NCBI GenBank assembly: GCA_963826225.1
Contig: CAWGWF010000006.1
Location: 28,243 to 92,242, forward strand
Source of the DNA: an uncultured Chloroflexia bacterium
Lineage (GTDB): Bacteria; Chloroflexota; Limnocylindria; Limnocylindrales; CSP1-4
Length of the DNA stretch: 64,000 nt
Direction: 5' to 3'
Made by a program: the position numbers and the translations under genes. Shown piece after piece: positions 1-52,589 of this stretch. How positions within the stretch are numbered: the first letter of the stretch is position 1; every line of letters begins with the position of its first letter. The notes under the pieces are model-generated. The model had not been told where the DNA came from. It ran no database searches and was given only the letters and a program-made list of their open reading frames with translations.

Positions 1-784
1 TCCGCACGACCTCCATCACCCGCGCGAACGATGCGACGAGCGGCCCCTCGAGGCGCTCGGAGAACGTCGGCTCGCCACCGGGCGTCGGCCGGAACTGATA
101 CACGAGCCGTGGTCGCTCCGCATCGGCGGGCAGCAAGAGGAGCGCGCCCGCGCGGTTCAGCCGCTCGCCGGCCAGCAGGTCGAGGGCCCGGAGCAGGTCG
201 AGGTCAGACATTGAAACGAGGCGGCGCCGGTCGTCGGGAAGCGCGGACAGGACGGACCTGACCGTCTCGAGGATGGCCGCGGAGACATCGCCCGGCGCGC
301 GATCCGACGCCTCGGCCGACCAGTCGTGCCCGAGGCGCTCCTCCCGGAGCCGCGTCGCCTCGGCGACCGGCATCGGCTGGCACTGGTTGCCGATGCGCTG
401 GTATGGGCGGCCCTTCGAGTCGGCGTAGACGTCGATCCCCTCGGGCACCTGGATGACGAGCAGCCGCACCCCTCGGCGGATGAGCTCCCGAACCTCGACA
501 AGGAGGCCCGGTTGCGTCGAGGCGTAGATGGACTGGCGGAGTCGATCGATCGCGAGCGCAGTGCCCAGGAGAGCGTCCGGGCCTGTGCGACGATCCGCGA
601 CGCCGAGCACGATCGTCCCGCCGGCGCCGTTCGCAAAGCACACCGCGGCCTCGGCGATGTCCCGCTCGGTCTCCTCGGGCAGGCGCTTGTCCTGCTTGAA
701 CTCCAGGATCTGGCTCTCGAGCTCCGCCGCGGGTCGCCCGTTGTCGAGCTCGGCCAGGATCCGCGCGATGTCGACGGCCACCAT
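1..784 (-). CDS. AlbA_2 (Schlafen-like) domain protein; 3' end runs off the window
   Basis: Not in the ORF track because there is no stop in the window. Manual translation from ATG 784 (RBS GAGGGG): MVAVDIARILAELDNGRPAAELESQILEFKQD...AAVCFANGAGGTIVLGVAD, the AlbA_2 signature. Frame appears open to position 1. Confidence 0.8.
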   Translation of the reverse strand, partial: MVAVDIARILAELDNGRPAAELESQILEFKQDKRLPEETERDIAEAAVCFANGAGGTIVLGVADRRTGPDALLGTALAIDRLRQSIYASTQPGLLVEVRELIRRGVRLLVIQVPEGIDVYADSKGRPYQRIGNQCQPMPVAEATRLREERLGHDWSAEASDRAPGDVSAAILETVRSVLSALPDDRRRLVSMSDLDLLRALDLLAGERLNRAGALLLLPADAERPRLVYQFRPTPGGEPTFSERLEGPLVASFARVMEVVR

Positions 785-8294: not shown

Positions 8295-9806
8295 CGCCGC
8301 AAGCGCCTGCCGCGCTCTCTCGACGACATCCGGGGTCTGCGGGTCGCCCGCTGGATCCGCGAGTCGACAGCCGGCCAGTACGACCGCTACGGCCCGGCCA
8401 GCCAGCGCGAGCAGCAGGACCGCTTCATCGAGCGCCACGGCCTCGTCGACACGGGGCTCGTGTTCCAGGTCGCCCACAGCGGCACGCACCGTCTGGCGCT
8501 CGGCGACGATGACCGAGATGCTCGCGGAGGCGCAGGCCGGGGCGTTCGACCTCCTCCTGGCCGGGTACTCCGACCGCTGGCAGCGCAACCTCCGGCGGAC
8601 GCTCGAGCTCCTCGAGGACGGCCTCCATCCCGCGGGCGTCGCCCTCGTCATGTGCGACCGGCGGATCCTGTCCTCCGACCCCCACGACTGGGACGAGCTG
8701 ATCTCGGAGGCCGCCGGGGCGGAGAAGTACAGCCGGCGCCTGTCGGAACGGATCACCGACGGCTACGCCGCGAAGTTCGACCACCGCGACGACCCGGGCG
8801 GCCACGCCGGCCTCGGCTTCCGGCGCTGCCGCGAGCCGCCGCACACGTCCTCGAGATCGACCCGGAGCGGATGCCGATCGCAGTCGGCCTGTTCGAGCGG
8901 TACGCCCTCGGCAACGTCAGCGCGAGCGAGCTCGAGGCGGAGACCGGGCTCGCCGCGACGGGCATCCGGATGATCCTGATGAACCCGCTCTACAACGGCT
9001 GGATCCGCCGGCACCGGCGGAAAGGACGAGACGCGCCGCAGCCGGCGCCGTGGCGCTCGAACCCACCCGTGTCAGACGAGCTGTGGGCGCGGGTCGAGGA
9101 GGTCCGGCGCGCCAAGACCCGTGGCGGGGGACCGAGCGACCGTGACCGGGTCGACCTGCTCGGCGGCCTGCTCTAGTGCGTCTGCGGTCGGCGGCTCCGC
9201 AACGACGGGACGTTCGCCGATGGCCGCCACCGCAAGCTCCACCCCAACCCGTGCGAGGCCTGGGGCCGCAAGGCCCGCCTCGGCGACGAGACCTGGGAGG
9301 CGCCGGTCCTGGCCCAGGTGGCCGGCATCGCGCTCGACGACGACACCATCGCGTCGGTCGTCGCGGCCCTCGGCTCGAGCCGCCAGCCGGTCGCGATCGA
9401 CCGCGCCCGGATCGAGCGGCAGATCCGCGAGCTCGCGCTCGAGCACGCCGCCGGCCGTCTCGGCGACGAGGCCTACCTCGCCCGCCTCAGGGTGCTCCGC
9501 GAGCAGCGGGACGCGATCGCCGAGCGGACGGCCGCCGGGCTACCGGCCGAGCGGGCGGTCGAGTGGCTGCGCGCCCTCGGCGAGTCCTCCAAGCCGGCAG
9601 ACGTACCGAAGGAGAAGGCAGACCTGATGCACGCCATCTACGAGCGGATCACGGTCGCGGGCCCCGAGATCGTGGGTGTCCGGCTGACCCCGGCGGCCTA
9701 CGCGCACGGATTGGCGCTGGCACTGCCCGAAAAGGTTGAACTGGCGCGCCCGACAGGATTCGAACCTGCGACCTTCGGCTCCGGAGGCCGACGCTCTATC
9801 CACTGA
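8291..9806 (+). CDS. Large serine recombinase (integrase); frameshifts plus in-frame TAG at 9174
   Basis: RVARWIRESTAGQ (catalytic Ser motif), GYSDRWQRN, LSERITDG, ILMNPLYNG, PPVSDELWARV, LLGGLL*CVCG zinc ribbon, C-terminal coiled coil. Confidence 0.85.
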
Positions 9807-9817
9807 GCTACAGGCGC
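9742..9817 (-). tRNA. tRNA-Arg (anticodon CCG)
   Basis: GCGCCTGTAGCTCAGTGGATAGAGCGTCGGCCT-CCG-GAGCCGAAGGTCGCAGGTTCGAATCCTGTCGGGCGCGCCA; cloverleaf with encoded CCA. Confidence 0.97.
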
Positions 9818-13587: not shown

Positions 13588-13765
13588 CAGGTGTTCGAGA
13601 TCCGGTGACGATCGTCTTGGTCCCGCTCGCCGATTGGGGCATCGACGCGCGTGCGAGGCGCGGCCACGATCGCGGGCACGAGGCGCCGGTCACGGAAGCC
13701 GACCGACGCCCACGGGAGACGAACGATGGCCACGGAAGCACGCGACATCGCGCTACCGGGGTCGC

Positions 13766-14272
13766 GTGGATCGCTACGAGCGCCGGCACGAGCAGGGGCT
13801 TCGCCGTCTGCAGCGCCGGCTGGACGCGGTGCGCGAGATCGAGGAGAAGCGGTCCCGCCAGGCAGCGAAGGCGCATGAGCGCGGCGCGGCCCGCAAGATC
13901 CAGGCAAAGCGGTCCCGGCAGGCGGAGGAGGCCCGGCGCCGGGCGGCCGCGATCGCAGCGGCAATCGAAGGCCTGCGCGCCGCCGCGGCGGTCGCCGAAG
14001 CCCTCGGGGCGCCGGTTTCCGACGTGCCCGACGCCACGGTTCCGGAGGCCGGGGCGCCGGTGGCGGCCACTGCCCCGGAGGCCATCGATCCGGCTGGGGT
14101 CGCCGATGCGCCGAGCACGGCCATCTCCGGGCCGCGCGGCTACTGCCTGCGCGAGCGCGAGTCCGTCGAGCTTGCGGGCGCGAAGGCGGTCGTCATGCGC
14201 AACGGGCGCGCCGGCATCGAGGGCACGTGCCCCAACTGCGGCACGCGGATCGTCCGCTTCGGCCGGCTGTAG
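13766..14272 (+). CDS. DUF5679-like zinc-ribbon protein with N-terminal coiled coil
   Basis: C-terminal GYCLRERESVELAGAKAVVMRNGRAGIEGTCPNCGTRIVRFG; start uncertain. Confidence 0.65.
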   Translation: MDRYERRHEQGLRRLQRRLDAVREIEEKRSRQAAKAHERGAARKIQAKRSRQAEEARRRAAAIAAAIEGLRAAAAVAEALGAPVSDVPDATVPEAGAPVAATAPEAIDPAGVADAPSTAISGPRGYCLRERESVELAGAKAVVMRNGRAGIEGTCPNCGTRIVRFGRL

Positions 14273-14354
14273 CCCGTCGCCGCGGCCCGTCACCGCGGCC
14301 CGGCCACCAGGCGCGCCCCCGCCCGCGCCCCGATCCCGCCGCACAGACCACGGA

Positions 14355-14530
14355 TAAACGTACGAGGCGGCTCCAGAAGGAGCCGCCTCGTGGCTGTCCC
14401 GGTGAAGGTGTCCGCCTAAGCTGACCTTCTGCCACGCTCCAGGATCATCTATCGCGTCGGCTTAACCGACTACCCTAACCCAACCTACCCATGATCCTGA
14501 TGCTGGGGCAGCGCGCTGACTAGCAGCATC
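14355..14530 (-). ncRNA. Candidate structured non-coding RNA, family not recognised
   Basis: Gap between convergent genes, mostly without ORFs in the track; nested stems; putative promoter TTCCCT-17-TAGGAT (14562-14534); terminal hairpin. Confidence 0.55.
14362..14391. terminator. 13-bp perfect hairpin, probable intrinsic terminator
   Basis: ACGAGGCGGCTCC-AGAA-GGAGCCGCCTCGT; followed by ACGTTTAT on the minus strand. Confidence 0.65.
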
Positions 14531-14643
14531 GATATCCTAGCGGGCAGGTGCGGATTAGGGAAGGGTTTTGTTCAACCCTTCGGTGAAAATCCCTTAACCT
14601 TCGTGCGCGGACGTCATGGACCGGGACTGCAGCGCGGGACGCG

Positions 14644-15138
14644 TCAGCCCTCGTCGAGGATCGTCACCGAGGTCATCGCCACCGGCGCGTCCGGCAGGTC
14701 CTTGCCATTGCGCGCCGCGGTCGCGATCGCGTCCACCACCTCGAAGCCCTTCGTGACCTGGCCGAAGATCGTGTACTGCTTGGGCAGCTTGCCCGTCAGG
14801 TCCTGGTGGCAGATGAAGAACTGCGAGCCGTTGGTGTTGGGACCCGCGTTGGCCATCGCGAGCGTGCCCCGGTAGTACTCGCCGGAGATCGGCTCGTCCG
14901 CGAACTTGTACCCGGGTCCGCCGGACCCGACGCGCCCGGCGTTGAGCGACGCCTTCTTGCCGAACTCCCCGTCGCCGCCCTGGATCACGAAGCCCGGGAT
15001 GACGCGGTGGAAGATGACATCGTCGTAGAAGCCCTGCTTCGCGAGGTCGATGAAGTTGCCGGCGGCCTTGGGCGCGCCGTCCGTGAACAGGTCGAGCTCG
15101 ATGTCGCCGGCCTCGGTGGCGATGATGGCGCGGGTCAT
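14644..15138 (-). CDS. Cyclophilin-type peptidyl-prolyl isomerase (cytoplasmic)
   Basis: FHRVIPGFVIQGGD, GTLAMANAGPNTNGSQFFI. Confidence 0.95.
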   Translation of the reverse strand: MTRAIIATEAGDIELDLFTDGAPKAAGNFIDLAKQGFYDDVIFHRVIPGFVIQGGDGEFGKKASLNAGRVGSGGPGYKFADEPISGEYYRGTLAMANAGPNTNGSQFFICHQDLTGKLPKQYTIFGQVTKGFEVVDAIATAARNGKDLPDAPVAMTSVTILDEG

Positions 15139-15181
15139 GGGCGTTCTCCTTGCTGGGGCGGGGGTTCAGGTGCGGTGTGCG

Positions 15182-15912
15182 TCACGGCCTGGTGACCGTG
15201 ACCTCGGCCATGGGCAGCGGCTCCAGCGCCGCGTTCGTTGGCGGGCCCGCGTTGGGCATGGCCGCGATGGCGTCCACCACGTCCATCCCCTCGGTCACGT
15301 GCCGATGATCTGGTAGGTGTTGTACTGGGCAAGCGCCTCCTCGGCGCCGTCGTCGAGGATCACGAAGAACTGCGAGCCGACGGAGTTCGGCTGCGAGGTG
15401 CGGGCCATCGCCACGACGCCGCGTCCGTACTTCGCCGTGACCGGCTCGTCCTGGATGGTGTAGGGCGGGCCGCCGGACCCCATCAGTTCCGGGATCACGT
15501 CCGGGCTGCGGCCGAACTGGCCGTCGCCGCCCTGGATGACGAAGCCCGGGACCAGGCGGTGGAACACGACGTTGTCGTAGTAGCCGCAGTCGGCGAGGGT
15601 CACGAAGTTGCCCGCGGCGATCGGCGACAGCGCGCCCTCGACCTTGATGTCGAAGGAGCCCTTGTCGGTGGTGATCGTCACCGTGGCCGTCTCGTCCGCG
15701 CCCATCGCCGCGGGCTGCTCCCGCGGGCAGCCGGGCGGGAAGGTGGGGCCCGGGTGCGTGGGCGCGGCCGACTCGATGCCGCCCGATGGCGTGGGCGTCG
15801 CAGGCGGGATCGTCGGCAGGCCGGCCGAGCCGCCGCCCGAGCTGCACGCGGCGAGAAGGATGGGGATCGCCAGGGCGGCGAGGGTCCGGGTGGCGAGACG
15901 GTGACGGGTCAT
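15182..15912 (-). CDS. Cyclophilin-type PPIase, lipoprotein; frameshift near 15300
   Basis: Lipobox LLAAC; FHRLVPGFVIQGGD, AMARTSQPNSVGSQFF; C-terminus VTEGMDVVDAIAAMP in another frame. Confidence 0.85.
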
Positions 15913-16610
15913 GCGGCGGCCTCCAGCGCACGGGGGAAGTCGATGGCCCCGGAAAGCAGCGCCTCTCCGAGGATGAGCCCGGCCACGCCGGCGTCGCGCA
16001 TGCGGCGGACGCCGTCGAGGTCGGTGACGCCGCCCGCAACGAGCACGTCGGCGTCGTGACGGCGGACGAGCGATTGCAGCAACCCGGCGTCGGGCGCGCC
16101 GGCGCCATGGGCAAGCACCAGTCGGCGCACGCCGCGCGCCACGAGCTCCTCCACCAGCGCGTCCAGCGGCGGCGGCTCGGGACGGCGCCACGGGAACGCG
16201 GCCAGCCGCTCCGGGCGAGGGTCCAGGCCCACGGCCAGCCAGTCCCCCGCGACCGCGAGGCACTCGCGCAGCGCGTCCGGGCGCTCCACGATCGCCACGG
16301 ACAGCACCACCCGCGTGGCGCCCGCGGCGAACGCGAGGCGGACGTGGTCCGGCTCCTCAAGGCCACCGGCCACCTGGAGCGGCACGGCGACCCGCGCGGC
16401 CACGGCACCGACGGCCTCGAGGTTGGCCGGAGCGGCCCGCCGGGCGCCATCGAAGTCCACGAGGTGCAGGATCCGGGCGCCTTGGGCGACCAACAGCTCC
16501 GCGATCCGCTCCGGGCGGTCGGTCGGGGTGCCGGTGCCGGCGGCGGCGCCGGGCCAGTAGACGAGGCGGGAGCGCCCGCCCGCGAGGTCGATCGCGGGGA
16601 TCACGTCCAT
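15909..16610 (-). CDS. HisA/HisF-family TIM-barrel protein (divergent HisA paralog)
   Basis: VIPAIDL, LHLVDFDGA, LQVAGG, AGATRVVL, LVAGGV, LILGEAL. Confidence 0.75.
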   Translation of the reverse strand: MDVIPAIDLAGGRSRLVYWPGAAAGTGTPTDRPERIAELLVAQGARILHLVDFDGARRAAPANLEAVGAVAARVAVPLQVAGGLEEPDHVRLAFAAGATRVVLSVAIVERPDALRECLAVAGDWLAVGLDPRPERLAAFPWRRPEPPPLDALVEELVARGVRRLVLAHGAGAPDAGLLQSLVRRHDADVLVAGGVTDLDGVRRMRDAGVAGLILGEALLSGAIDFPRALEAAA

Positions 16611-18295
16611 CGCCCGGAGACCCCGTCCTGGAGCAGGCGGCGGTGGAAGCTGATGGGCAGCGAGCCGTTGCGCAGCAGCGTGTCGTGGAAGTCGCGGAGC
16701 GAGAACGCGCCGCCCCGTCGCCGCCCCTCCTCCTCGCGCAGCCCCAGGATCAGGACCTTGCCCAGCAGGTAGCTCAGCTGGTAGCCCGGCGTGTACGTGT
16801 AGCGGCGGACCTCCGCGCGGGCATTCGCAAGCTCGAAACCCGTGTGCTCGACCATGAAGTCGGTCGCCTCCTGGGGCGTCAGCTCGCCGCGGTGCATGCG
16901 CACGTCCAGCACGATCCGGCAGGCGCGCCAGATCGCGTCCGTGTACATCGCCGTCCGGAAGGCCGGGCCGTCGTCGAAGCCCTCCTCGCGCATCATCTGC
17001 TCGGAGTACATGCCCCAGCCCTCGACGAACTCGGGGGCGTCGGTGAGCATCCGGGTCAGCGACGGGTGGCGCGCCGCGACCGCCAGCTGGAGGTGATGGC
17101 CCGGGTACGCCTCGTGGACGCTGGTGTTCGAGATCGAGGCGCGGTAGTGCTCCCGCATCGCGTTGGGGTCGTCGTCCACCGCGGACGTGACGACGTAGAT
17201 GCCCCGCTGATCGGCATCGAACCGCGCGGGCGAGAAGTACGCCGCGAACGGCATCACCGAGCGCAGGTACTCGGGGGTCTCGATGACGTCGATGACCTCG
17301 CCGTCCGGGATGGTGACGAGGTCTCGCTCCAGCAGATGCGCCCGGGCCCGGCGCATCGCGTCCCGGTACCCCTCCAGCGCCTCGGCGAACGTGGCCGGAT
17401 GGTCGGACTTGAGGCGATCGAGAATCGCGGGCAGGTCCGCGTCCGGATCAAGCTCCCGGGCGGCTGCCCGCCGGGCCTCGAGGTTGGCGTGGAGCTGCTC
17501 GAGCCCGATCCCGAGGATCGCGTCCGGATCCAGGTCGCCGAAGGCACGGCGGCGGATCAGCTCCTCGTACAGCTCCGTGCCCAGCGGCCAGTCGTCCGTC
17601 GCGTCCGCGAGGGTCTCCCGGAGCCATCCCCGGTGCGCCTCGAGGGCCGAGCCGGCGCCCGCGATCGCGCGGTCCAGGCGCCGGAGCTCCGCCTCGCCGA
17701 GCACCCCGTCCGCCGCGGTGCGAACCTCGCCGAACAGGGATGGCAGATCCGTGGCGTAGCGGGCGTCCACCTGCTGCCAGATGCCGACCTGGGGTCCGGC
17801 GGCACGCGTCCGCGCCTCGAGCAGGAAGGCCGGGGCCTGCTCCAGCCGTGCCGTGATGTGCTCGAGCCGTTCCGCGAGGGGGGCGGCGCCGCGCGCGAAC
17901 AGGAGGAAGACCGCGTCGCCCAGCTCGCCGGCCGCGGTGGAGCGTCGCTCCCAGCGGCGGATATCGTCCGCCTCGAGCAGTCCCAGCCGGACGTTGTGGA
18001 TCTCGAGGTCCCGCTCGAAGCGCGCTCCGGCGGACAGCCCGGCGGGATCCAGCGCCTCCACGGCGGCCAGGTGCGCACGCTCGGCGGCGATCTCCGCGAG
18101 CACGGCGTCGCGCCCCGGATCCCCCAGGCGGTCGTCTTCGGTGTGGATGCCGAACCCAGTCGCGAGGACGGGGTTGTCCGCCAGCAGCCGGCGGACGCGC
18201 GCCTCGACCAGGTCGTACAGGCGCGCGTCCAGCGGACCCGCGTCGGGGGCGGGGTCCGGTCGCGGGAGCTCGACGCCCGGGAGCTGCCGGGTCAT
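16601..18295 (-). CDS. DUF885 domain protein
   Basis: HEAYPGHHLQ, FVEGWGMYSE, WRACRIVLDVRMH, PGYQLSYLLGK, FSLRDFHD. Confidence 0.9.
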   Translation of the reverse strand: MTRQLPGVELPRPDPAPDAGPLDARLYDLVEARVRRLLADNPVLATGFGIHTEDDRLGDPGRDAVLAEIAAERAHLAAVEALDPAGLSAGARFERDLEIHNVRLGLLEADDIRRWERRSTAAGELGDAVFLLFARGAAPLAERLEHITARLEQAPAFLLEARTRAAGPQVGIWQQVDARYATDLPSLFGEVRTAADGVLGEAELRRLDRAIAGAGSALEAHRGWLRETLADATDDWPLGTELYEELIRRRAFGDLDPDAILGIGLEQLHANLEARRAAARELDPDADLPAILDRLKSDHPATFAEALEGYRDAMRRARAHLLERDLVTIPDGEVIDVIETPEYLRSVMPFAAYFSPARFDADQRGIYVVTSAVDDDPNAMREHYRASISNTSVHEAYPGHHLQLAVAARHPSLTRMLTDAPEFVEGWGMYSEQMMREEGFDDGPAFRTAMYTDAIWRACRIVLDVRMHRGELTPQEATDFMVEHTGFELANARAEVRRYTYTPGYQLSYLLGKVLILGLREEEGRRRGGAFSLRDFHDTLLRNGSLPISFHRRLLQDGVSGRWT

Positions 18296-22137: not shown

Positions 22138-22214
22138 GGACCCGTGGTGTAGCGGCCCAACATGCCAGCCTGTCACGCTGGAGATCGCCGGTTCGAATCC
22201 GGTCGGGTCCGCCA
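22138..22214 (+). tRNA. tRNA-Asp (anticodon GTC)
   Basis: GGACCCGTGGTGTAGCGGCCCAACATGCCAGCCT-GTC-ACGCTGGAGATCGCCGGTTCGAATCCGGTCGGGTCCGCCA. Confidence 0.97.
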
Positions 22215-51068: not shown

Positions 51069-52589
51069 CTACCAGCGACCATTGCCGGGACGCATGGCCT
51101 CACGGGGCAGCAGGATGTCGAACGCACCGCGGATCCGGTCGTCGACGTCCATGCCGACGTGATCGGGGTAATGGGTGCCCAACGTCTCTCGCACCCGCCG
51201 CCGCGCCCGCTCCCGGGCGTCCATCGATCCACCTTCCTCCCAGGCTCCGGGGCTCCCGCGATCCCCGATGGCCGGGTAGACGAAGTCGCTTCGCATCCGG
51301 CGGCGGGTCTCCGGGTGGCTGAGGAAGTGACCGTCGCCCTGCACCACGTCGCGGATCATGTCGAAGGCCAGCGTCTCGTCCGTCACCTCGATGCCGCGCA
51401 CCGTCCGCTGGACGGCCGCCAGCATGTCGTCGTCGATGACATACGCCTCGAACGCCGTGGCCATCAGGCTGGCCTGCATCCCGGCGGCCTCGCAGACGAG
51501 GCTGGAGCCCGCGTTCGCGGCCATCAGCGCGGTCGACGCCTTCTCCGCTCCCGACTGGGCGTCGGGGAGCTTGGAGTCGGTCATGCCGGCCGCCACGCTC
51601 CCGGGCAGGTCGTAGAACCCAGCCATCTGCGCACAGCCCGCCACGATCAGCCCGTTCTCCGCGCTGCCGGCGGACATCGCCCCGGTGCGCAGGTCGGACA
51701 GGAACGGCCAGGTGCCGAGGTGGGCGCGGCAGTCGGGATCGATCAGGAAGCAGAACACGAGGCCGCCGAGGCACTCCGCCATGGACTGCACGATGGTGCC
51801 CGCCAGCGTGACCGGGCTGGTCGCACCGGCCTGGGGCGCGGACACGATGCCGACCGGCATGCCGGCTCGCACGGCCGCCTCCATGGCCTCGCACGAGTCT
51901 TTCGCGAACCGGAGCGGCGGCACGACGTGGGTGCACGCCATGGAGCAGAACGGGCGCTTGCGGAACTCACCCTCACCGCCCAGGCGCATGTCCAGCATGG
52001 CGACCGCATTCCGGACGCTGGCACCGTTGTTGAAGCTGCCGGTGATGTGCTTCGTCGTGCCCTGCATGCAGGCGTAGACCGTGTTCAGGTCGTTGGCGTC
52101 CCAGGTCGGCATGTCGCGGGCGACGATCGACCGCCAGTAGAAGTGGATGTTCTCCAGGGTGTCCACCAGGCGGGCGATGTCGTACAGGTCCACGGTCGTC
52201 GTGGGCCGGTGGAGCCCGGTCTCGAAGTCGACGATCAGGGGCGCCGCACCACCCGTGCCGAGATGGACGCGTCCGCCGCCGATCTCCAGGTCGTGCGACG
52301 GATCCTGGCCCGGCAGGACGAAGCTGCGCGGCGCACGGGCGATGACGTCCTCGACGAGGGCGCGGGGATAGTGCAGCCGCCCCTCGTCGTCCGTCCACCC
52401 ACCGGCGGCGGTCACCAGCTCGACCATCGAAGGGATGGCGTCGGCGAACCCGATCTGCTCCATCACGTCGAGCACGGTCCGATGGATCTGCTCCATCTCC
52501 GGCTGCGTCAGCGGCTGGTACCGGCCGCCAACGAGCCCGGGCCACACCGGCGGCGTCACTCTGCGATCCGGTCGGTGCTCAGATTTCAT
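51069..52589 (-). CDS. MttB-family methyltransferase, non-pyrrolysine #2
   Basis: Clear paralog of #1: VWPG, PPLRF, QAGATSPVTLAG, SDLRTGA, AGMTDSKLPDAQSGAEKA. Confidence 0.9.
   Translation of the reverse strand: MKSEHRPDRRVTPPVWPGLVGGRYQPLTQPEMEQIHRTVLDVMEQIGFADAIPSMVELVTAAGGWTDDEGRLHYPRALVEDVIARAPRSFVLPGQDPSHDLEIGGGRVHLGTGGAAPLIVDFETGLHRPTTTVDLYDIARLVDTLENIHFYWRSIVARDMPTWDANDLNTVYACMQGTTKHITGSFNNGASVRNAVAMLDMRLGGEGEFRKRPFCSMACTHVVPPLRFAKDSCEAMEAAVRAGMPVGIVSAPQAGATSPVTLAGTIVQSMAECLGGLVFCFLIDPDCRAHLGTWPFLSDLRTGAMSAGSAENGLIVAGCAQMAGFYDLPGSVAAGMTDSKLPDAQSGAEKASTALMAANAGSSLVCEAAGMQASLMATAFEAYVIDDDMLAAVQRTVRGIEVTDETLAFDMIRDVVQGDGHFLSHPETRRRMRSDFVYPAIGDRGSPGAWEEGGSMDARERARRRVRETLGTHYPDHVGMDVDDRIRGAFDILLPREAMRPGNGRW

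Follow-up and report, generated by a model that had tools for sequence, protein, structure and literature searches.

A probable small RNA gene of a new, lineage-specific family, with a near-invariant G-tract loop, behind a cyclophilin gene in Limnocylindria (Chloroflexota)

What, if anything, is encoded in the gap between a DUF5679-domain gene and a convergent cyclophilin gene of an uncultured bacterium of the Chloroflexota class Limnocylindria? The gap, at about 14355-14600, is part of a 64,000-nucleotide (nt) stretch of contig CAWGWF010000006.1 (assembly GCA_963826225.1), referred to here as the window, and the original prediction, made from its letters, saw there a structured, so far unannotated non-coding RNA, ~170 nt long and encoded on the minus strand, of a family it did not recognize and with repeated UAG loops as the functional unit. 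All elements it listed for the gap are found where it had placed them, i.e. the TTCCCT-17-TAGGAT promoter-like pair, an inverted repeat, the hairpins, a 13-bp terminator and six plus-strand CTA triplets, and with a promoter and a terminator present and no Rfam match, the first half of the proposal is borne out. It is in our judgment highly probable that the gap is an independently transcribed gene for a structured small RNA (sRNA), single-copy, ~150-175 nt long and representing a new, lineage-specific family. The features by which sRNA genes are generally recognized were recovered: it has a promoter and an intrinsic terminator of its own, its structure is conserved and covaries, and no reading frame is conserved, since any frame is broken by changes of 1-2 nt in the lengths of loop and hairpins.

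Does the RNA belong to a known family? Scanning the whole window against Rfam 15 (4227 families) at gathering thresholds yielded no match in the RNA region, only two transfer RNAs (tRNAs) and one PYLIS_3 match, all elsewhere. A permissive scan of 14250-14700 (E<=10) returned only chance-level mascRNA (16.2 bits) and Atu_C3 (12.7 bits) matches on the terminator or flank, so that the novelty claimed for the locus stands. The signal recognition particle (SRP) RNA of the genome is located elsewhere, and no lineage-specific RNA for Limnocylindria was found in Rfam or in the literature as far as titles and the openings of abstracts go.

How far does the RNA reach beyond this genome? By BLAST, 33 of 36 genomes of the same genus match over ~250 nt at 82-91% identity, and all 24 genomes of a second family, which are small (1.0-1.4 Mb), match a 65-nt core (window 14431-14496) at 83-87%. 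The covariance model R1, which matches the window at 14382-14533 with 159.8 bits (contig positions 42624-42775 of the own genome), recovered exactly one match per genome in 42/44 genomes of family f1, 6/6 of f2 and 47/50 of f3, the last figure being 45/48 without two positives that are unpublished genomes, and no match in family f4 (0/49) or f83 (0/1). With the filters off, R1 gave at best 8.4 bits (E = 0.68) at five f4 cyclophilin loci, i.e. no homologue, and coding-looking DNA sits directly behind the cyclophilin gene in the two f4 loci that were read. The exact motif of the loop described below likewise occurs once per genome (f1 20/22, f2 4/4, f3 15/17), and is found in 1 of ~355 other genomes of the phylum as a non-homologous chance match, the reversed-pattern control also giving 1. 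On these searches the RNA appears so far confined to three families (f1-f3) of the class. In a scan of one genome per species, the carriers are titled Chloroflexota or 'Candidatus Limnocylindria/Limnocylindrales'. Contigs labelled Steroidobacteraceae, Polarisedimenticolia, Anaerolineaceae and Sulfomarinibacteraceae (loci L113, L115, L118, L125 and L138) also carry a clear copy of the RNA, and are probably mislabelled or mis-binned Limnocylindria. Four loci (L055, L182, L201 and L204) were chance matches to the pattern and were dropped as non-homologous.

Is the structure maintained in the relatives? A hand-drawn structure of 31 pairs was evaluated on 118 sequences with identities below 95%, aligned with MAFFT (A2). 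In this alignment 89.4% of the cells are paired, versus 31-47% when the 3' partners are slid; 19 of the 31 pairs show changes on both sides (8-12 slid), as do 204 cells (25-85 slid), and the covariation score is 0.214 (0.04-0.07 slid), a value reached by none of 500 shuffles. In an alignment of 100 sequences that was fitted to the model, and is biased towards it, 91.2% are paired and 24/31 pairs are compensatory. RNAalifold on the MAFFT alignment recovered the P2 helix with 8 compensatory pairs, yet mis-drew the inner loop, for which reason the hand-drawn structure was used. The folding energy lies below that of shuffled sequences on both strands (z = -4.2 for minus and -6.0 for plus); the frequent G-U wobbles in P2 and P3 fit the minus strand only.

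From 5' to 3', the elements are P0, P1, a pyrimidine-rich joiner, P2, the G-tract loop, P3, a GYGAWAG strand, P4, CCGGGACAGC and the terminator, all on the minus strand. P0 is a 5'-terminal hairpin, GCUG-CUAGU-CAGC (14515-14527), with 4/4 pairs compensatory and 98% of cells paired, and is absent in f2. P1 joins CUGCC (14507-14511) to GGCAG (14429-14433) with 88-90% of cells paired, and variants read by eye are GCAGCU/AGCUGC in f2 and GAUUC/GAAUC in f3. P2 pairs GCAUCAGGAUCAU (14491-14503) with AUGAUCCUGGAGC (14436-14448), has 8/12 pairs compensatory and holds one conserved mismatch. P3, GUCGG-UUAAG-CCGAC (14456-14470), is a hairpin of 5-6 bp across the family, with 4/5 pairs compensatory, 98% of cells paired and variants such as GUCGC/GCGAC, GCCGG/CCGGC and AGCGG-GAAA-CCGCU. 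It is followed by the 3' strand of the internal loop, GCGAUAG (14449-14455), with the consensus GYGAWAG in the aligned homologues. P4 (14405-14428), a hairpin whose length varies, is closed by AAGGU/ACCUU (14428-14424 with 14409-14405), has 5/5 counted pairs compensatory and 81% of cells paired, and is absent in f3. Most of the stems drawn in the original prediction are thus supported by covariation. The exception is CGUGGC/GCCACG, which exists in this genome only, relatives having CAGCAACG; here GGCAG instead pairs with CUGCC to form P1. The G14429/C14404 pair of the GAAGGU/ACCUUC stem drawn earlier was left uncounted, G14429 being assigned to P1.

The conserved segment CCGGGACAGC (14393-14402) before the terminator either stays unpaired or contributes the 3' strand to an alternative, long-range helix, in which GCUGCCCC pairs with GGGACAGC (14504-14512 with 14393-14402; AGCUG with CGGCU in f2). 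This helix is 92.9% paired, against 21-43% when slid, and 3/7 of its pairs are changed on both sides, including a compensatory change in the small-genome family. The helix shares the CUGCC strand with P1, and the two are mutually exclusive. Judged by these alignments, it may close a three-way junction or represent one conformation of a switch.

Which part of the RNA is conserved most? An asymmetric internal loop is presented on the P1-P2 stalk, with 21 nt on the 5' strand versus 7 nt on the 3' strand (GYGAWAG), and the longer strand, GGGUAGGUUGGGUUAGGGUAG (14490-14470, minus strand), enclosed by the stem CAGGAUCAU/AUGAUCCUG, is a near-invariant array of G-tracts. The pattern GGGUAGGU(N0-2)GGGUNAGGGUAG, 21-22 nt, is invariant in 50 BLAST-derived homologues, where variation is limited to the N of UNA and to the 0-2 nt that follow GGU, and exact in 31 of 32 model-derived copies, the exception being locus L245 (positions 112-118, minus strand), with GGGAAGG for GGGUAGG. 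Could the loop encode a peptide? This is unlikely, since the AUG-GGU-AGG-UUG-GGU-UAG frame of the window is broken in relatives by the 1-2-nt length changes, and the conservation at all positions also argues against coding. Could it pair with a long target? No Watson-Crick complement of at least 12 nt to the loop occurs in the own genome, and there is one 11-nt complement against a mean of 15.3 for shuffled loops. This count argues against a long antisense target such as a segment of ribosomal RNA or tRNA and is silent on short seeds. Words containing UA are rare in the 72% G+C genome, which may explain the depletion of complements.

The UAG triplets themselves fared less well than the structure. 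Their enrichment is real: six plus-strand CTA triplets lie at 14416, 14449, 14470, 14475, 14485 and 14520, while the window holds on average 0.45 per 181 nt, only 0.16% of its 181-nt windows hold at least six, and 2.5 would be expected from the composition of the region. As a repeated functional unit they do not persist, the six UAGs being kept in 118, 118, 107, 58, 2 and 2 of 118 homologues. The two kept throughout sit in the G-tract loop, one model-derived copy having AAG at the first, and the one kept in 107/118 is that of the GYGAWAG strand, where f3 has AAG or CAG. In the light of these alignments the conserved feature is the G-tract array, not UAG. Nor were protein partners of the analogies recovered: the genome, which is 94% complete, yielded no CsrA, Hfq or RRM_1, TRAP not having been searched. 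A scaffold or sponge role as such is possible.

Does the RNA have transcription signals of its own? The predicted transcript spans ~175 nt (14353-14527, minus strand), where the -10 box predicts the 5' end and the U-tract the 3' end. The -10 box TAGGAT (14534-14539) is separated by a 17-nt spacer from the -35 box TTCCCT (14557-14562), the position at which relatives carry TTGnnn, and an AT-rich stretch, GGTTAAGGGATTTTCA (14584-14599), which would function as an UP element, lies upstream; similar TTAAGGAATTT-type stretches precede the RNA in other families. From the end of the -10 box to the G-tract motif the distance is 42-52 nt, or 29 nt in the family without P0. A regular expression for TTGnnn-N16-18-TAnnnT at the fixed distance matched 139 of 186 unique loci and 0 of 194 random control stretches, the own genus of the window, with TTCCCT, being among the misses. 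The inverted repeat GAAGGGTT/AACCCTTC (14581-14574 with 14567-14560) overlaps the -35 box, and its 8-bp stem is not conserved, locus L002 for instance having GAAGGGCC. At the other end, a 13-bp G+C-rich hairpin (14390-14361) and the tail ACGUUUAUCC form the terminator (14351-14390), and a terminator-like hairpin with a T-rich tail is found in 149 of 179 homologous loci. Going by sequence, the promoter is thus of sigma-70 type and the RNA's own, and the terminator is intrinsic. The RNA region has a G+C content of 59% against 72% for the window.

What surrounds the RNA? The genes proposed to flank it were both confirmed by Pfam matches. Upstream, on the same strand, lies the gene for a cyclophilin-type peptidyl-prolyl isomerase (14644-15138, minus strand; PF00160, E = 7.9e-44), which is also the constant neighbour: an initial Pfam look found a cyclophilin upstream in 10/14 loci, and in 70 of the 74 loci with enough flank the distance from the end of a same-strand cyclophilin gene to the RNA downstream of it is below 400 nt, with a median of 156 nt. 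The convergent downstream gene (13634-14272, plus strand), with a DUF5679 domain (PF18930, E = 8.8e-11), is not conserved as a neighbour, its place being taken elsewhere by GmrSD, KdpD, a cyclase, an amidase or tRNA-like DNA. Because the downstream neighbour varies, the cold-shock gene is no conserved partner either.

Several further observations concern the surroundings. The gene run upstream of the RNA (14644-18295, minus strand) comprises DUF885-like, HisA/PriA-like, longer N-terminally extended cyclophilin and short cyclophilin genes, and parts of it recur, with His_biosynth and two cyclophilins in locus L039 and DUF885 and a cyclophilin in L083. In several f3 genomes (L084, L089 and L120) a tRNA-like sequence (GCGCGCCGGTAGCTCAGTGG...) follows right after the terminator of the RNA. 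The tRNA genes that Rfam found in the window are at 9745-9817 (minus strand) and 22138-22211 (plus strand), and the match to PYLIS_3, the pyrrolysine insertion sequence of mttB, is at 51485-51584 (minus strand; 44.6 bits versus a gathering score of 38), which hints at a pyrrolysine-type methyltransferase gene in the genome.

How might such an RNA work? We propose that it would act in trans, with the invariant G-tract loop as a docking surface for a conserved cellular partner that is sequestered, scaffolded or modulated. This loop could remain unpaired, or it could adopt a compact, G-rich or quadruplex-like fold, and the neighbouring cyclophilin and RNA polymerase are candidate partners. That the loop docks a protein is a tentative assignment, quite conceivable if short of an even chance, a protein being judged more likely than a messenger RNA (mRNA). 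A bolder version is distinctly doubtful, i.e. that of a new class of housekeeping ribonucleoprotein or sensor RNA, in which a quadruplex-like core of four tracts would bind the cyclophilin, as an RNA-chaperone/isomerase particle, or a planar or ionic ligand, with the toggle between P1 and the alternative helix as read-out.

Several points weigh against an independently transcribed RNA that acts in this manner, and the first concerns its expression. Of four metatranscriptome runs, three, from three studies, gave contigs on the element. Two of the contigs (14360-14510 and 14382-14493) have 0 differences to the window, that of a relative spans 14355-14564, and a fourth of 186 nt (14464-14649, 2 differences) bridges into the cyclophilin gene. 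The contigs on the element have a depth of only 2-7, show neither ends nor strand, and may stem from DNA carry-over, and because of the bridging contig, read-through or an origin in a 3' untranslated region (3' UTR) is possible. They are compatible with transcription, possibly as read-through from the cyclophilin gene, without amounting to proof. The remaining run gave no contig on the element, and 13988-14339 has no RNA-library contig, neither of which counts as evidence of absence; read depth over the conserved motifs of the cyclophilin stems from many organisms and was ignored. Moreover, many homologues were gathered with the exact loop motif itself, and their invariance is by construction, so that we take the invariance of the loop only from the BLAST- and model-derived sets. 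As to the partner, f4 keeps cyclophilins without the RNA (0/49), and the cyclophilin thus does not need it; these f4 genes were detected with PF00160, whereas a cyclophilin query with a cut-off of E<=1e-20 retrieved none. The partners of textbook sponges are missing too, since neither CsrA (PF02599), Hfq (PF17209) and RRM_1 nor TROVE/Ro (PF05731) was found in the own genome, and the complement search leaves seed pairing over 6-10 nt possible.

Such short pairing is the core of a different reading, by which the RNA would be a base-pairing regulatory sRNA, its G-rich loop serving as a seed for short C/U-rich sites in mRNAs independently of Hfq. Its anatomy is indeed that of a trans-encoded sRNA, in which a separate promoter is followed by a 5' hairpin, a conserved stretch that lies exposed, and a Rho-independent terminator, and Hfq-independent pairing is known in the Actinobacteria, which are also high-G+C bacteria. 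However, 21 nt that are invariant across three families far exceed the typical length of a seed, the genome offers no loop complement of at least 12 nt and fewer 11-mers than for shuffled loops (1 versus 15.3), and a G-rich seed is unable to pair with purine-rich ribosome-binding sites; we regard this reading as unlikely. Invariant junction nucleotides between covarying helices are, on the other hand, typical of riboswitch aptamers, and the RNA could be a free-standing aptamer, with the loop, P3 and GYGAWAG forming a pocket for a small molecule or ion, possibly with G-tetrads, and with P1 and the alternative helix as a switch. Four G-tracts spaced by 2-3 nt would suit it, and both of the exclusive helices are supported (P1 88-90% paired; the alternative 92.9%, with changes on both sides). 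What speaks against it is that no gene follows on the same strand to be controlled, as a riboswitch leader would have it, the next gene being convergent and the downstream neighbours varying, that the terminator has no visible anti-terminator partner, that three GGG tracts and one GG make a canonical three-layer quadruplex impossible, and that no Rfam aptamer matches even at E<=10. An aptamer is on balance improbable.

The position of the RNA, on the same strand behind a cyclophilin gene in 70/74 loci, invites yet another explanation, namely that the RNA serves mainly in cis, as a structured 3' UTR by which the cyclophilin mRNA is terminated and stabilized, or that it is an sRNA processed from this mRNA. 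The window has no clear terminator between the gene and the RNA, and the contig at 14464-14649 bridges the two. Set against this is the promoter of conserved position between gene and RNA (139/186 versus 0/194), the 21-nt invariance, which exceeds the needs of a stabilizing hairpin, and f4, which keeps the cyclophilins without the element, and we hold a cis role to be decidedly improbable. Could the RNA instead stand in for 6S RNA, binding RNA polymerase with a large loop that mimics open promoter DNA? RF00013 was not found in the own genome (E<=1) and matched 0/17 of the Limnocylindria in the sample of the phylum and 0/5 genomes of f4, while it was found in 35/151 Chloroflexota overall. The RNA is similar to 6S RNA in size, occurs in a single copy and has a promoter that looks strong, with UAGGUU-GGG resembling, in our reading, a -10 element (TAnnnT) and a GGG discriminator. 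But no long stem closes the ends, the apical stem has only 5-6 bp, the loop is lopsided (21 versus 7 nt), the -10-like reading fails where the spacer of the loop is A, C or absent, and many other families of Chloroflexota also lack RF00013 matches. As f4 lacks both RNAs, the two are not distributed in a complementary manner, and the replacement idea, which gains little from it, is in our view very improbable. Least credible, and close to negligible, is an element that acts as DNA, such as a protein-binding or recombination site. Nothing specific favours it, apart from the plus strand also folding well (z = -6.0), whereas compensatory changes keep the pairing, G-U wobbles are tolerated on only one of the strands, the orientation of promoter and terminator agrees with it, and RNA-library contigs cover the locus.

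How, then, does the proposed trans-acting, partner-docking RNA compare with known systems? With the CsrB/RsmZ sponges it shares a stand-alone sRNA gene with promoter and terminator and a repeated short G-containing motif, and sequestering is conceivable; its GGGU/AGGU units however lie in one internal loop, without conserved GGA-in-hairpin repeats, PF02599 (CsrA) was not found in the 94%-complete genome, and no Rfam family matches. With 6S RNA (RF00013) it has in common a single-copy, housekeeping-like character, a length of ~150-190 nt and a large internal loop on a helical stalk, but its ends are unclosed, the apical stem (P3) is very short, P4 and the terminator are extra, and neither this locus nor any other part of the genome matches RF00013 at E<=1. 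It is set apart from Hfq-dependent sRNAs as PF17209 was not found in the own genome, and from the Y RNA of Ro particles as PF05731 (TROVE) was not found either and the fold differs from an end-to-end stem. RNAs with UAG/GAG repeats bound by TRAP or HutP also have several UAGs within a short single-stranded stretch, while here only 2-3 UAGs are conserved, with irregular spacing (7-9 nt and 2 nt) and one AAG homologue. TRAP and HutP are known from Bacilli, and the own genome was not searched for them. Analogously, the four G-tracts 2-3 nt apart, including GGGUUAGGG, between helices recall quadruplex RNAs such as telomeric-repeat RNA and the Mango and Spinach aptamers, a likeness drawn from sequence alone; in contrast to these, one tract has only two Gs, and the U and A of the loop are also invariant. 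Orphan ncRNA motifs such as the raiA motif and OLE resemble it in being lineage-restricted and without known function, in the invariant junctions that separate covarying helices and in the fixed gene neighbourhood, but they come from another phylum, and the RNA described here matches none of the 4227 families of Rfam 15.

An RNA that is single-copy, near-universal in the sampled genomes of three families and invariant over 21 nt likely touches a central process. The Limnocylindria, Chloroflexota that abound in soils, sediments and lakes, are uncultured, and for the RNA biology of this group, which is without genetics, the family gives a handle: a covariance model, a loop that can serve as a target for mutation or as bait, and a testable link to the cyclophilin. 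Should the loop turn out to form a natural quadruplex or to act as a protein decoy, a new motif would join those of the few bacterial sRNAs that bind proteins or ligands.

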